DNA of 64,000 bases from Escherichia coli (lineage in GTDB: Bacteria; Pseudomonadota; Gammaproteobacteria; Enterobacterales; Enterobacteriaceae): NCBI RefSeq assembly GCF_044324875.1, contig NZ_CP172185.1. The stretch is one strand, 5' to 3'. Every line of letters starts with the position of its first letter. The first letter of the stretch is position 1. The notes under the pieces are model-generated. The model was given only the letters and a program-made list of their open reading frames with translations. It had not been told where the DNA came from and ran no database searches. The position numbers were made by a program, and so were the translations under genes. Positions 1-64,000 of the stretch are shown here, one piece after another.

Positions 1-845
1 TTTATCGTTTTCGTGGTGCCAGCAATGCACTGTCGCATCCGGCACTGAACGGGGCGGACCGTCTCTGGCTGACGCAAAGTTTTCGTTTTGGTCCTGCCGT
101 GGCCGGGGTGGCCAGCCAGTTACTGAAGCGTGCCGGCGAGAGCCGTGAGGTGACCGGCAGGGGCGGGGATGATGAAGTGCTGACGGCAGGTGAAATGCGT
201 GCGCGCGTGAAGGCAGGGAAGATGACCGGTCACAGGGCGATACTGAGCCGGACGGTGGCCGGTGTGATTGGCACCGCACTGATGGCGGCAATGCGTGGCA
301 GGAAGGTTTACTGGGTGGGGGGCATTGAAGGCTACAGAACGGAGGCACTGGAAGATCTTTACTGGTTTCAGATGGATATGCCGGAGCGGATGCACAGTGA
401 CAGACTGCGGAAGGACTACCGGGGTTTTGACGAGTACCGTCATATTGCGAAGGTGACGAAGGATGTGGAAATGAATCAGTCCATTCGTCTGCTGGAGCTG
501 TGCTTTCCGCTGCCGAAGAAACTCGAACTTCTCAGAAAGCACACCGTCACGAATGAACAGGAGGCGGATATCACGGTCTCAACGGCACACCGCAGTAAGG
601 GACTGGAGTGGTCACTGGTGGTACTCGATGATGATTTTCAGGATATCACCGACCCGCTGATAAGCGAGCAGGAGCGGCGGGATGAAACCAATCTGCTCTA
701 TGTGGCGGTCACCCGGGCGCGCAGAACGCTGGTTCTCAATGAACTCATGCAGCAGCTGACGGAAGCTGCCGGCGATGGTGGTGCACCCGGAAACGCGCCG
801 GTGCAGGGGAAGGAAGACGATGGTGTGGAGGGAGAGGATGTTTAA
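1..845 (+). CDS. Superfamily-1 (UvrD/RecD-like) DNA helicase, C-terminal part; 5' end lies outside the window
   Basis: Frame 3 is open from position 3 to the stop at 843-845. Translation shows SF1 motifs: YRFRGA (motif III-like) at the window edge, TAHRSKGLEW (motif V), YVAVTRAR (motif VI). Confidence 0.6.
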   Translation, partial: YRFRGASNALSHPALNGADRLWLTQSFRFGPAVAGVASQLLKRAGESREVTGRGGDDEVLTAGEMRARVKAGKMTGHRAILSRTVAGVIGTALMAAMRGRKVYWVGGIEGYRTEALEDLYWFQMDMPERMHSDRLRKDYRGFDEYRHIAKVTKDVEMNQSIRLLELCFPLPKKLELLRKHTVTNEQEADITVSTAHRSKGLEWSLVVLDDDFQDITDPLISEQERRDETNLLYVAVTRARRTLVLNELMQQLTEAAGDGGAPGNAPVQGKEDDGVEGEDV

Positions 846-2367
846 GCGGTTCAGACGTATGCTGCCCGGCACAAAGGGCACGGAGCCTGGCGTGGTCGCG
901 CCGGTGATACCGGCAGGGTTTTATGCGCCGCTCACGGCAGAGGCACTGTTATCACCAGAGCACAGGGAGCTGAGGCTCAGGCAGGTCTGGGATAACAATC
1001 CGATGCCCCGTGATGTATACGACAGGATGTGCCTTGAACCACTCAGCCGGCTGCTGCTGAACACCCAGAACGTCCCGGCAACACGGGAAGGACGGTGGTC
1101 CCGTGCCGGTGGATTTGGTGATCTGACGGTACTGTACACCACGTATGCCGTTCGTCTGGCAAGAGGGTACATGTTTCCACCGGATGCGACCCCGGAAGAC
1201 CAGGCGGCTCAGGCCGCAGTCTGGCATGCGGTGATTTTCTGGTCAGCGCTGTTTTACCACCTGCCCCTGCTGGCGCACCTTGAGGGGGAACTGCTGAGTG
1301 GGCGGGGCTGGCAGCCAGGAATTTCTGTGCCTGACGAACCTTTCCGTTTCCGGTTCAGGAAGACGGCGCCGCAGGGTACGGAAGCGCAACAACTTGCGGC
1401 CCTGACTGCCGGCACGCTGTTACCGGACGGCGCAACGGCCTGGCTTGTGACGGCGCCGGGCGCACTGCAGAATCTGGCCGGGGCGCTCTGGCATCAGCAT
1501 CCCGGGATGGCGCTGATTCGTGATGTGCTGCAGGAAGCGGCAAGGCAGACAGAGAGTCCGCTGAATACCTGCGCTGTCACTGCGCCGGTTACTGCGGAGG
1601 CTTCAGCAGACATCCGTCCTGCTGACCCGGTGGTGACCGGCAGCACGGACAGTGTGGTGGCAGTCACTGAGGTGCAGCCGGCAGAGGAGGTGAAGACTGA
1701 GAGCGTGCAGACAGAGACTGAAGGTGGTGGTGAGTCCGCCGGGGCGTCAGAGGTGCCGTCCGCACAGCAGGAACTGACGGTTCAGACAGCGCCAGTGGTG
1801 ACGGCAGATGATGAAGCGGTCAGTGCTGCTCCTGCGGATCAGGACACAGCAATGCTGCTGAGTCTTTTTTCAGCAGATGAGTCCGAAACTGCTGAACCTG
1901 AAAACAGTATTAAATCGTCAGCCGATCGGGACGGCCAAAGTGACGTACCGGCAGTACAGGGAGAACAAACCAGCGTTATTTATCCGGAGGGCGAAGCAGA
2001 TACGGAAGAGGTGGATTTTATTACTTGGCTGAAATCGGGGTTGTCATCGGGGATGATTGAAATAAATACACCTTCCGCGAGAGTGCATTGTATTGCGGGG
2101 TATGTTTTTTTGTGTGTCCCGGATATTTTTTATCTGTATCAGAAAATGACGGGAAGCCGTCGTGACCGCAGGAGTGTTCAGGCGTTGTTTGAACGTTCCC
2201 GTATTCACAAAATCCGGGAAGGTGAGCGTTTTTTCAGCCTGCATCTGTATAGTGTACCTGACAGAACAGGGAGTTATAAAGCTGTAAGCGGATATCTGGT
2301 TAAAAGCCGTTATCTGTGTGGTTATAACGCAGTGCCCGGGGACAGTGAATACATTGCTTTTCCATAA
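775..2367 (+). CDS. Hypothetical island protein (530 aa as maximal ORF) with a central acidic low-complexity linker
   Basis: Long ORF overlapping the helicase stop. Alternative starts at 820 (AGGAAG upstream) or 838. Residues ~265-420 are rich in T/E/A/V/S/D/Q; N- and C-terminal parts look globular. No family recognised from memory. Confidence 0.5.
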   Translation: MVVHPETRRCRGRKTMVWRERMFKRFRRMLPGTKGTEPGVVAPVIPAGFYAPLTAEALLSPEHRELRLRQVWDNNPMPRDVYDRMCLEPLSRLLLNTQNVPATREGRWSRAGGFGDLTVLYTTYAVRLARGYMFPPDATPEDQAAQAAVWHAVIFWSALFYHLPLLAHLEGELLSGRGWQPGISVPDEPFRFRFRKTAPQGTEAQQLAALTAGTLLPDGATAWLVTAPGALQNLAGALWHQHPGMALIRDVLQEAARQTESPLNTCAVTAPVTAEASADIRPADPVVTGSTDSVVAVTEVQPAEEVKTESVQTETEGGGESAGASEVPSAQQELTVQTAPVVTADDEAVSAAPADQDTAMLLSLFSADESETAEPENSIKSSADRDGQSDVPAVQGEQTSVIYPEGEADTEEVDFITWLKSGLSSGMIEINTPSARVHCIAGYVFLCVPDIFYLYQKMTGSRRDRRSVQALFERSRIHKIREGERFFSLHLYSVPDRTGSYKAVSGYLVKSRYLCGYNAVPGDSEYIAFP

Positions 2368-2397
2368 CAGCACCGGGTCATTCATCCGTTCAGGGAG

Positions 2398-3510
2398 ATG
2401 TATTCCCCTATGAAGAAAGATGTCGAAAAAATAACGTGGGAGGAATTACTCTTTGAGTACTTCCTTGAGAAAAATCTTAAACCTGATACTGAACACAGCT
2501 ACCGCAAAGTTGTCCGTCTGTTTGATAAGTTCCTGGGCGGTGATTCCTGGCCCGGCGATGTCACACCGAGAGACATTCAGCGATGGCGACGTCATATGCT
2601 TAAAGATCAGGGGCGTTCAGTAAACACCTGGAATAACAGAGTGTCACATCTCCGACCGCTCCTGGCGCTTGGGATCAAGAAAAAGTGGTTACCACAGACG
2701 GAAAATCCGCTTGATGGCACTTCAGTGCCCGGGGCATCAAAACAGAAAAAAACGCTCACTGATAAAGAGATGGTCAGGATTTACCGTACAGTTCAGGCTT
2801 TTGCTGAAGCTGAGGCCAATAAGATGGTGATCTGTGACAGGCGGCGCAATGCGATGTACCCTGCATGGTACTGGCTGATCGTGCTGGATACGCTGCGCTT
2901 CACGGGGATGCGTTTTAACCAGCTGAAACATATCAGGCTGAAGGATATTCATGAGGATGAGGCGGTGATTACCCTTCAGCTGGAAGGGAGTAAAACCCGA
3001 CGTGAATGGCGTGTGCCGATTGTGGAATCGTTACGACTTTCACTGAAACATCTTATTGAGTGCGCCCGTGTCAATGGTGCGTCGGATAATGACTATCTCT
3101 TTGATGTCTGCCTGTACAGCGAGCATTACAGTCCCGGGAAATACCAGTACTGTGCCAAAAGAGCGCATCAGTCGGTCAAATCTTTTTTCCGCAGACTGAG
3201 CCGTGAATGTGGTTTTTTTGTCTCGTCACACAGATTCAGACACACACTGGCAACAAAGCTGATGGCGGCACCGGAGCGTAATCTGCACATGGTCAAATCC
3301 ATTCTGGGGCACAGGAGTGTTGCCACCACCATGGAGTATATTGATTTTTCGGTGGAAGTTGCTGCTGAGGCACTGGAGGCTGAACTCGGTTTATCCACGG
3401 ATGAGGCGACAAAAAGACGGATTAAAGAGGCGAAAAAACGCCGTGAGGCCAGTACCGGGAAAAAGGAAAAACAGGAAAGTTCTGGAGGGGAACTTTCTGA
3501 CAAGGAATAA
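2398..3510 (+). CDS. int: Tyrosine-type site-specific recombinase / integrase
   Basis: Conserved catalytic signature: TGMR..QL (box I Arg), HRFRHT (HxxR), GHRSVATTMEY (His and Tyr nucleophile). Adjacent to the tRNA 3' end. Start may be the ATG at 2410. Confidence 0.8.
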   Translation: MYSPMKKDVEKITWEELLFEYFLEKNLKPDTEHSYRKVVRLFDKFLGGDSWPGDVTPRDIQRWRRHMLKDQGRSVNTWNNRVSHLRPLLALGIKKKWLPQTENPLDGTSVPGASKQKKTLTDKEMVRIYRTVQAFAEAEANKMVICDRRRNAMYPAWYWLIVLDTLRFTGMRFNQLKHIRLKDIHEDEAVITLQLEGSKTRREWRVPIVESLRLSLKHLIECARVNGASDNDYLFDVCLYSEHYSPGKYQYCAKRAHQSVKSFFRRLSRECGFFVSSHRFRHTLATKLMAAPERNLHMVKSILGHRSVATTMEYIDFSVEVAAEALEAELGLSTDEATKRRIKEAKKRREASTGKKEKQESSGGELSDKE

Positions 3511-3713
3511 ACATGCTTGACATCGGACCAGAATGGTGTAAGCATTTTTGCGTATGCGAGAGCGTGACACCTGTTACCAGCAGGTGCCACGCTTGAGGAT
3601 ACGATACTGAAACCACAGTGTAACCAGACTTACACGGAGATTTCGTTATGACCGGATCCTGTATTAGACGCCCGTTAAGGATCTCATCCCTTAACCAGCG
3701 TACTTTGATGCGT

Positions 3714-3789
3714 TTGGTGCCCGGAGGCGGAATCGAACCACCGACACGGGGATTTTCAATCCCCTGCTCTACCGACTGAGCTATCCGGG
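3714..3789 (-). tRNA. pheV: tRNA-Phe (GAA anticodon), 76 nt including CCA
   Basis: Reverse complement is GCCCGGATAGCTCAGTCGGTAGAGCAGGGGATTGAAAATCCCCGTGTCGGTGGTTCGATTCCGCCTCCGGGCACCA. Matches E. coli tRNA-Phe except for the T-stem (see findings). Confidence 0.9.
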
Positions 3790-3895
3790 CAACGGGGCGC
3801 ATTAAACCTGATTCGCCTCGTCTCGTCAATCAAATTTCTTCAATTTACTGCAGACTGCACAATCTATCATCACTTTGCCGCTAATGCACGCATTG

Positions 3896-4624
3896 TCAGG
3901 CAAACCAGGCGGTCCAGGCGGCGGAAAGCGGCATTGCCAGAAGGAGTGCTGGAAGCATGTTGACCACCGGGAACATTTTAATGCCACAGATGCGTAATCC
4001 GGTTGCCAGCAGCAATAAACCGCCTACGGCGCTGAAGTCTGCCATCATCGACGGTGTGGTCAGCGGTAATATCAGCGCGGCAGCCCACGCCAGCGTTAAC
4101 TGGATGATCAGTAATGGGATACTAATTACCGACACCGCAATACCCAACGAGCAGGCGAAGATCATCGCCGTAAAGAAATCGAGAAATGACTTGGCGATTA
4201 AAATACTCGGATCGCCGGTCATCCCTTCGTTCATCGCCCCGAAGATCCCGGTGCCGCTGGCGCAAAACAGGACAATAATCGCGACATAATTCTGAATAAA
4301 AGATTCATGCGCTGGCTTCTTACGTGAGTGGCGAAACAGATTTTGTGCTTTGGTGACCGCGGTATTGACGCCTTTTTCCAGCAGACAAATTTCGCCGATT
4401 AATGCACCGAGTAAGGTTGCTAACACCATCGCCGGAAGGTTGGCGCATTTCACCACCAGTAAAATACCAATCCCCAGCGATGCCAGACCAAAAATTGATG
4501 TCATGGAGACGCGGATACGTTCCGGTAAGCGTTGGCTAAGGAGTGCACCGAGAACGCCACCCAGTAATACTGCACTTGCGTTGATAAAAGGACCGATGAC
4601 CACAAGAGTTCCTGTTAGCTGCAT
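3896..4624 (-). CDS. yqgA: Inner-membrane protein YqgA (DUF554 family)
   Basis: Polytopic hydrophobic ORF; sequence and position match K-12 YqgA between pheV and speC. Confidence 0.85.
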   Translation of the reverse strand: MQLTGTLVVIGPFINASAVLLGGVLGALLSQRLPERIRVSMTSIFGLASLGIGILLVVKCANLPAMVLATLLGALIGEICLLEKGVNTAVTKAQNLFRHSRKKPAHESFIQNYVAIIVLFCASGTGIFGAMNEGMTGDPSILIAKSFLDFFTAMIFACSLGIAVSVISIPLLIIQLTLAWAAALILPLTTPSMMADFSAVGGLLLLATGLRICGIKMFPVVNMLPALLLAMPLSAAWTAWFA

Positions 4625-48756: not shown

Positions 48757-48857
48757 GCCTGATGCGCTACGCTTATCAGGCCTACACGTATCCTGCAATA
48801 TATTGAATTCGCAGGTTTTTGTAGGCCGGATAAGGCGTTCACGCCGCATCCGGCATG
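48757..48857. repeat. REP/BIME cluster
   Basis: GCCTGATGCGCTACGCTTATCAGGCCTACA and GTAGGCCGGATAAGGCGTTCACGCCGCATCCGGCA units. Confidence 0.6.
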
Positions 48858-62989: not shown

Positions 62990-63140
62990 ACGATGGCAGG
63001 GCAGCATGGTGCTGTAACGGTAAAGCCCTCACCGAAGCGAGGGCTTGAAGGAGAAGGGTTATGATGCGACTTGTCATCATACTGATTGTACTGTTACTCA
63101 TAAGTTTCCCAGCTTATTAACAGTCAGTCTCAGGGGAGGA
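62990..63140 (-). ncRNA. sibC: Antisense antitoxin sRNA SibC (approximate boundaries)
   Basis: Inferred from the ibsC position and the known antisense arrangement; ends not determinable by eye. Confidence 0.35.
63061..63120 (+). CDS. ibsC: Type I toxin small hydrophobic peptide IbsC (19 aa)
   Basis: MMRLVIILIVLLLISFPAY with RBS GGAG upstream, in the serA–ygfA spacer where the sibC/ibsC locus lies in E. coli. Confidence 0.6.
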   Translation: MMRLVIILIVLLLISFPAY

Positions 63141-63220
63141 GTCATCCTCCCTTACCCTTACTCACTAAATTAGGTTAAAGAATCAACGATGTCAATCAGG
63201 GCGATGCAGGTGTGTCGCCC

Positions 63221-63841: not shown

Positions 63842-64000
63842 AGGGAATCTCCGAGATGCCGCCGCAGGCTGTAACCCTTGAACCCTTGGTTCAAGGTGAA
63901 TGTGTCGTCGCAGTTTTAAGGCTTCTCGGACGGACCGAGCATGCTCACCAACCGCGGAGCGCCACATTCTTGTGGTATGAAATATCGGCTCAGGGGACTG
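63842..64000 (-). ncRNA. ssrS: 6S RNA, 3' 159 nt (5' end beyond the window)
   Basis: Reverse complement matches the 6S RNA sequence ...CAGUCCCCUGAGCCGAUAUUUCAUACCACAAGAAUGUGGCGCUCCGCGGUUGGUGAGCAUGCUCGG...GGAGAUUCCCU; directly upstream of ygfA as in E. coli. Confidence 0.8.

Follow-up and report, generated by a model that had tools for sequence, protein, structure and literature searches.

The tRNA-Phe gene near the left end of the E. coli DNA analysed here, a stretch of 64,000 nucleotides that we refer to as the window, has a T-stem that is not the one expected for this organism. This raises the question of where the 3' part of the gene originated. The original prediction, which was made from the sequence alone, held that an integrating element had supplied its own copy of this part, that the exchanged T-stem bases still pair, and that the crossover took place 5' of the T-arm. 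Our analysis leads to the view that the gene is, with very high probability, the pheV tRNA-Phe gene rebuilt as a hybrid by the integration of an integrative conjugative element of the ICEEc2/SPI-7 type.

ARAGORN made a single tRNA call in the 64-kb window, namely a tRNA-Phe with the anticodon GAA at positions 3715-3790 on the minus strand. The gene had been anticipated at 3714-3789; a tRNA-Phe is indeed located there, but the interval was off by one base and the strand had not been given. With a score of 69.1 bits against a threshold of 29 for the Rfam tRNA model (RF00005) and a GAA cloverleaf, the gene was recognised as a bacterial elongator tRNA-Phe. Its sequence is GCCCGGATAGCTCAGTCGGTAGAGCAGGGGATTGAAAATCCCCGTGTCGGTGGTTCGATTCCGCCTCCGGGCACCA, in which tRNA position n corresponds to window coordinate 3791-n. 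The T-stem reads GGTGG at tRNA positions 49-53 and CCGCC at 61-65, which is GGUGG/CCGCC in the RNA as opposed to CUUGG/CCGAG in the canonical E. coli molecule. The canonical sequence was taken directly from the element-free strain HS-01, and the only mismatches to it were at positions 49, 50, 64 and 65 (CT...AG to GG...CC), the exchanged bases being G49 and G50 at 3742 and 3741, and C64 and C65 at 3727 and 3726, all on the minus strand. The canonical T-stem assumed when the difference was first noticed was the correct one: it is present in the HS-01 gene, and K-12 MG1655 belongs to the records that match the window gene with four mismatches. The possibility that reference E. coli strains share the variant T-stem, which would have removed the basis for the entire idea, was looked at and the references read CUUGG/CCGAG. 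A cloverleaf pair count revealed that pair 49:65 has changed from C:G to G:C and pair 50:64 from U:A to G:C, with both sides altered in each case. All 21 of the 21 cloverleaf pairs of the window gene are standard pairs and, when pairs were counted over six distinct gammaproteobacterial tRNA-Phe sequences, pairing was kept in 100% of the cells. The helix is thus intact, as predicted. Outside the T-stem, the bases relevant for a functional tRNA-Phe (anticodon, A73, D- and T-loop, and the encoded CCA) are identical to those of the canonical gene.

The surroundings of the gene differ between its two sides. At the 5' side, the native chromosomal flank (3791-4624, minus strand) consists of the pheV upstream region at 3791-3895 and yqgA at 3896-4624, and is followed by speC and nupG, which according to open reading frames and annotation identifies the E. 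coli pheV locus. The 5' flank of pheV in the window is identical to that of the element-free HS-01 locus. At the 3' side, a tyrosine recombinase (integrase) gene at 2398-3510 on the plus strand runs towards the tRNA gene and stops 204 bp short of its 3' end, in the place where HS-01 has yghD. An intact tRNA gene is therefore followed by a foreign tyrosine integrase, which is the arrangement of an island-regenerated tRNA gene, and the gene at 3715-3790 represents the attL of the element. The integrase matches Pfam Phage_integrase with 67.9 bits and has N-terminal SAM-like domains; in strain TUM1886 it is also annotated as a tyrosine-type recombinase, with a RefSeq start that corresponds to window position 2410. 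It is preceded on the plus strand by a TraI/MobH-type relaxase gene (775-2367; Pfam TraI_2 and TraI_2_C; RefSeq start in TUM1886 corresponding to window position 838) and by the 3' part of a gene for a UvrD-like helicase (1-845; Pfam UvrD_C and UvrD_C_2), which exceeds the left edge of the window and is annotated at 984414-985922 in the TUM1886 record. The relaxase reached 193 bits with NCBIfam TIGR03760 (ICE relaxase, PFGI-1 class), for which the cut-off is 161.4 bits. Since the integrase, relaxase and helicase end of an integrative conjugative element adjoins the tRNA 3' end, the earlier assignment of this region to an island was correct.

The stretch from the integrase stop codon to the tRNA 3' end (3511-3714) represents one attP arm of the element and is 100% identical to that in TUM1886. 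It includes the motif cgcccgttaaggatctcatcccttaacc at 3669-3696, which is conserved in integrase lineages that are 60-80% identical, forms an imperfect hairpin on the tRNA strand and is still recognisable in Pantoea. We regard this motif as a candidate site for protein binding within the arm. Elsewhere in the window, Rfam matches above the gathering threshold were observed on the minus strand for a Sib antitoxin RNA (63045-63195, 136.5 bits), for the 6S RNA (63844-64000, 104.2 bits, cut by the window end) and for the sRNA ES036 (48778-48820, 42.5 bits).

If an element has supplied a new 3' end, the native 3' fragment should have been displaced to its far end. We found no such fragment within the window, which covers 3.7 kb of the element; the far end lies outside, because the element runs off the left edge. 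The junction could be followed in strain TUM1886, which is 100% identical to the window over positions 1-3909 and in which the element spans about 85 kb, with the helicase, relaxase and integrase genes forming one end. At the other end, beside ParA, the sequence GGGGATTGAAAATCCCCGTGTCCTTGGTTCGATTCCGAGTCCGGGCACCA is followed by the same terminator hairpin as pheV of HS-01. This fragment represents the native 50-nt 3' part of tRNA-Phe with the canonical T-arm (locus L003, 14772-14821). The predicted displaced fragment is therefore present, in direct orientation and with the native pheV terminator flank behind it. When attL was aligned with the far-end fragment and with the empty HS-01 site, a reciprocal pattern emerged: the intact gene is of the host type through the 5' flank and positions 1-48, and of the element type from position 49, and the far-end copy is element DNA up to position 26, common to both in a block from 27 to 48, and host DNA from 49. 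That an integrated element supplies the 3' end, as had been proposed, is evident from this pattern and from strain 2015C-3121. In the latter, a junction was found that consists of the ParA end, 49 nt with the variant T-arm, and an integrase end, so that element DNA is present on both sides of the variant. Therefore, the element itself supplies the variant T-arm. The hybrid structure of the gene, the displacement of the native fragment in the genome with the identical junction, and the element origin of the variant T-arm are thus directly observed.

At pheU, TUM1886 contains a further element of this family, the integrase of which shares only 47% identity with that of the window. Here too, the intact gene has the variant T-arm and the far-end fragment the canonical one. 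The displaced fragment at this locus is directly followed by a 1263-nt gene that is annotated as a tyrosine-type recombinase/integrase (L128 29641-31150), and that we regard from its position as P4-type. From this arrangement, the integrative conjugative element apparently separated the tRNA gene from an island that was there before, and pheU of TUM1886 appears to hold a tandem array in which one tRNA gene is used at two different sublocations. In RefSeq, displaced tRNA-Phe fragments have been labelled 'tRNA-Ser' or 'tRNA-OTHER' (TUM1886 record 5082612-5082689, which is L128 29613-29690, and NCTC8623, L135 31674-31752); ARAGORN made no tRNA call at these fragments of TUM1886 and NCTC8623. The element DNA just 5' of displaced fragments begins with GCCCG... 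or GTCCGGAT..., which resembles the 5' acceptor strand of tRNA-Phe. On account of this likeness, the attP copy may be a decayed whole tRNA gene.

The three-sequence alignment also delimits the site of strand exchange. Positions 1-26 of the tRNA gene (3765-3790, minus strand) are unambiguously the 5' part of the host gene, since they equal pheV of HS-01 and join the native 5' flank without a break, and in the far-end copy of the TUM1886 element unrelated sequence is found where the host gene has these positions. Positions 27-48 (3743-3764, minus strand) form the 22-nt block GGGGATTGAAAATCCCCGTGTC that is identical in the host gene and the element copy, and positions 49-76 (3715-3742, minus strand), four bases of which differ from the canonical gene, were supplied by the element. 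The two T-stem strands move as one unit, which places the crossover 5' of position 49. The proposal of a crossover 5' of the T-arm is therefore upheld and can be made more precise: the crossover occurred within tRNA positions 27-48.

On the mechanistic side, the attP of the element carries its own copy of the 3' part of tRNA-Phe of 49-50 nt (positions 27 or 28 to 76), and the tyrosine recombinase very probably exchanges strands of attP with those of the host gene within the 22 identical nucleotides (27-48). Upon integration, the promoter and positions 1 to about 48 remain host DNA, positions 49-76 with the entire T-arm, the acceptor strand on the 3' side and the terminal CCA are element DNA, and the 3' part of the host gene with its terminator ends up at the far end of the element. 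More specifically, the exchange may involve a 7-nt overlap in the anticodon loop (3753-3759, minus strand), with the GGGGA and TCCCC arms of the 5-bp anticodon stem serving as inverted core sites. We consider this placement in the anticodon loop probable, with some reserve, because attP identity has its left boundary at position 27 or 28 in each of four lineages, because the anticodon-centred class is the commonest in Islander, where islands restore the split tRNA gene from attP (PMC4383910), and because among family members the anticodon arm always matches the host, which is not necessarily the case for the T-arm. Identity between attP and host that starts at the 5' arm of the anticodon stem is characteristic of this crossover class. 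Relatives in Photorhabdus, where the anticodon stem has A28:U42, did not narrow the interval 27-48, as their attP copies match their hosts, and we found no family member with an attP that differs from its host inside positions 28-48; the placement in the anticodon loop is hence made by analogy. Displaced 3' fragments of tRNA-Phe with homology starting at positions 27-32 were also observed in Marinobacter, Xenorhabdus, Photorhabdus, Alcanivorax and Marinobacterium (loci L008, L037, L050, L064, L065, L069, L075, L102, L109, L111 and L123). The occurrence of such fragments in many Gammaproteobacteria indicates that targeting of the anticodon arm of tRNA-Phe by islands is widespread.

We also examined how the variant is distributed over E. 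coli. Of 5429 matching E. coli records (chromosomes and plasmids), 5357 had a best match of 94.7% to the window gene (4 mismatches in 76), and only 72 had a match of at least 99%. About 99% of the complete E. coli genomes have the canonical form only. A variant-specific probe of 36 nt detected 82 copies in 74 of 5426 genomes, with two copies in 8 genomes. The trio of genes for the UvrD helicase, TraI relaxase and integrase adjoined all nine inspected copies of the variant, that of the window included. This association of four changes that occur as one block with the same kind of element in 9 of 9 cases cannot be attributed to chance. At least five integrase lineages of the ICEEc2/SPI-7 family, 46-80% identical to that of the window, were found in E. 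coli, and the variant was also seen beside elements with integrases that are 64-80% identical (S19-651, G1/2 and 2013C-3033) and in strain C5.

The variant T-arm does not mark the element family in every case. Exceptions are strains NCTC8623 and RM11911, whose integrases are 98-99% identical to that of strain C5 and whose attP arm is the same, yet the T-arm beside the integrase is canonical (L129 3669-3744 and L130 3631-3706 compared with L134 3461-3536). In NCTC8623 the T-arm at the far end is canonical as well, which makes the repeats perfect. Since both forms occur within one integrase lineage, the T-arm allele must switch occasionally. Possible routes are gene conversion from another tRNA-Phe copy, or a rare exchange in the identity blocks 3' of the T-arm. 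Such switching leaves the reading of the window unaffected.

With these data, two other explanations for the origin of the T-stem can be weighed. It could be argued that pheV of E. coli acquired the four substitutions through mutation and compensatory evolution, without any mobile element. That both exchanged pairs remain Watson-Crick pairs is what compensatory evolution would give. However, an allele of this origin would not be expected to adjoin the integrase end of an element in each of the nine inspected copies, to appear at pheV or pheU depending on where the element is located, or to occur in the 2015C-3121 junction with element DNA on both sides, and the displaced fragment in TUM1886 should not have kept the canonical T-arm. 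Moreover, none of the 5429 E. coli records had its best match in the band from 95 to 99%, where an intermediate with two mismatches would fall. A native allele is therefore effectively refuted. The other explanation is that strands were exchanged in the T-loop or at the 3' acceptor end, with the T-stem differences having some other origin. There is precedent for this in P4-type GI-pheV islands, which use repeats of 19-23 bp that start in the T-loop (PMC11537424), and the allele switch of NCTC8623 and RM11911 indicates that exchange 3' of the T-arm, or gene conversion, can occur. This explanation is nevertheless very unlikely for the window, as positions 49 and 50 are of the element type in the intact gene and of the host type in the displaced fragment, and as the latter begins at position 27 or 28 and not in the T-loop. 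In addition, a T-loop crossover would be expected to generate a CU/CC chimera, the cloverleaf of which was computed at -25.4 kcal/mol as compared to -32.1 kcal/mol and misfolds; the best match of such a chimera would likewise have fallen in the band from 95 to 99% that is empty in the 5429 records.

A further alternative accepts the hybrid and concerns its performance, in that the tRNA could be crippled or silent and cells could rely on their other, canonical tRNA-Phe gene. Two of the three T-stem pairs that set the affinity for EF-Tu (PMC3239215) are swapped in the hybrid, and with the native terminator displaced no convincing terminator follows the gene: the one weak match is located inside the integrase gene and is no more than shuffled sequences give. 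Against this stands the finding that Xenorhabdus, Alcanivorax and Marinobacterium have these very 76 nt as their native tRNA-Phe. The variant is furthermore present in two copies in 8 genomes, and both standard tRNA-Phe loci of TUM1886, which were the two loci examined in that genome, carry the hybrid, so that the canonical gene is missing from both. The host promoter and 5' flank are intact. As for EF-Tu, the published additive values are -0.4 kcal/mol for the change from CG to GC at 49-65 and 0.0 for the change from UA to GC at 50-64 (PMC3239215, Table 2), and the model thus predicts binding of the hybrid to be tighter by about 0.4 kcal/mol, which is near-neutral and within the error of the model. 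We regard a crippled or silent tRNA as highly improbable. Indeed, judging from its sequence the hybrid tRNA-Phe is almost certainly functional, since the T-stem is its sole difference from the canonical molecule, the host promoter has been retained, the same molecule is native elsewhere, and TUM1886 has the hybrid at both loci. The positions relevant for PheRS are unchanged, because only positions 49, 50, 64 and 65 differ. By computed folding, the cloverleaf of the hybrid is 3.0 kcal/mol and its T-arm hairpin 2.4 kcal/mol more stable than the canonical counterpart.

It is conceivable that the T-arm of the element is under selection and not neutral, for example by protecting the element from RecA-mediated loss, by blocking rival islands from entering the regenerated gene, or by retuning Phe decoding in strains in which both genes have been replaced. 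Besides changing two EF-Tu affinity pairs and stabilising the T-arm, the variant splits the 50-bp repeat into identical stretches of 22, 13 and 11 bases and alters 2 of the 23 bases of the attachment site of P4-type pheV islands. We consider such selection very unlikely.

The comparison with TUM1886 also bears on the history of the element. The end of the element and the first approximately 120 bp of the chromosomal flank are 100% identical to TUM1886. SNPs begin at 3910, and the chromosome to the right of the tRNA gene is about 98.5% identical. Over positions 39001-64000, even the best complete E. coli genome reached only 98.6% identity. The diverged flank and the identical element end together mean that the window has the same element in a diverged background that is absent from the set of complete genomes. 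Complete (100%) identity of the element end between chromosomes that have diverged by 1.5% implies that the element spread horizontally in recent times.

In a scan of one genome per species, the variant 3' half was found to be the ordinary tRNA-Phe in Vibrio, Aliivibrio, Marinobacter, Alcanivorax, Idiomarina, Photorhabdus, Xenorhabdus, Arsenophonus and others, and the full 76-nt sequence was present as an intact gene at 36 loci of other species, several marine Gammaproteobacteria among them. In Xenorhabdus, Alcanivorax and Marinobacterium, where all 76 nt are identical to the window gene, the sequence represents a chromosomal gene with its own flanks, as exemplified by both copies in Xenorhabdus ehlersii; in E. 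coli, in contrast, it exists only as a chimera of host and element. The attP of the element therefore appears to be a remnant from a host that had this T-arm. Integrases that are 41-51% identical to that of the window adjoin tRNA-Phe in Xenorhabdus, Photorhabdus and Pantoea. Beside the 41%-identical integrase of Pantoea stewartii CCUG 26359, the tRNA-Phe gene (L034 1445-1520) has A6 opposite C67, an A.C mismatch in the acceptor stem, which is possibly due to an imperfectly paired hybrid of host and element or to a mutation in this strain.

Judging by its genes and annotation, the element belongs to the ICEEc2/SPI-7/HAI2 (pKLC102-PAGI-2) family of conjugative elements. Within the window, the family is represented by the PFGI-1-class MobH/TraI relaxase. 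Outside it, the TUM1886 element is annotated with a type IVB pilus cluster, TIGR037xx ICE transfer genes, TraD, TopB, Ssb, ParB, a 'SPI-7-type island replicative DNA helicase' and ParA, and thereby has the ParA/DnaB-PI/ParB/TopB/Ssb set, the transfer genes and the pilus that mark the family. ICEEc2 of E. coli BEN374 was reportedly described as a member of the pKLC102/PAGI-2 family by Roche et al. in 2010 (J Bacteriol 192:5026); it is said to be common in avian isolates and to have a helicase-relaxase-integrase trio beside the tRNA gene as well as a type IV pilus cluster. According to its annotation, the TUM1886 element resembles it in both the trio beside the tRNA gene and the pilus cluster. 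Compared by description, it likewise shares with ICEEc2 its place of insertion, which in E. coli is downstream of one of the phe tRNA genes, pheU or pheV; three papers (PMC11537424, PMC6761156, PMC13127887) cite ICEEc2 as a conjugative element at an E. coli phe tRNA gene. The family targets phe-tRNA genes and generates repeats of about 49 bp (PMC4814525, PMC6761156, PMC11537424, PMC13127887), and HAI2/PbN1_GI15 of Pectobacterium and SPI-7 of Salmonella Typhi, which belong to the same family, share as their target either of two phe-tRNA genes. One of these targets is located beside speC, and direct repeats of about 49 bp span the 3' part of the gene (PMC4814525). The Pectobacterium repeats have been described as identical over 49 bp, whereas the two copies of window-type elements differ at four positions, so that the intact gene is visibly chimeric.

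Islands of the P4-integrase type at pheV (GI-pheV) also integrate at the 3' end of this gene and leave a tRNA remnant as attR (PMC11537424), but their integrase belongs to a different family from that of the window element. As their repeats start in the T-loop, the T-stem never has its 5' strand replaced by these islands. Compared with the 23-base P4 attachment sequence, the hybrid gene differs at two positions (TTCGATTCCGCCTCC... as opposed to ...GAGTCC...), and the displaced fragment keeps the canonical 23 bases. The anticodon-centred ('A') class of Islander (Williams 2002), in which a tyrosine recombinase leaves an intact gene restored from attP and a fragment that starts at the 5' arm of the anticodon stem (PMC4383910), shows no difference in kind from the present case, for which the cleavage positions are inferred.

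Accordingly, the phenomenon at pheV is the usual way in which integrating elements regenerate a tRNA gene, here with an element from a described family, and is as such already known. The current understanding is left unchanged by our findings, which are of value mainly as a clean confirmation. Even so, the four-base signature in tRNA-Phe represents a reliable, alignment-free marker for an element of the ICEEc2/SPI-7 type at E. coli pheV or pheU, and it bounds the crossover of the integrase to positions 27-48 without any experiment. In addition, the attP allele can revert to the host type within a lineage of elements. Lastly, some strains apparently run entirely on a 'foreign' tRNA-Phe, the T-stem of which is different at two of the pairs that determine the specificity for EF-Tu, and such strains constitute a natural test of the published additive EF-Tu model.
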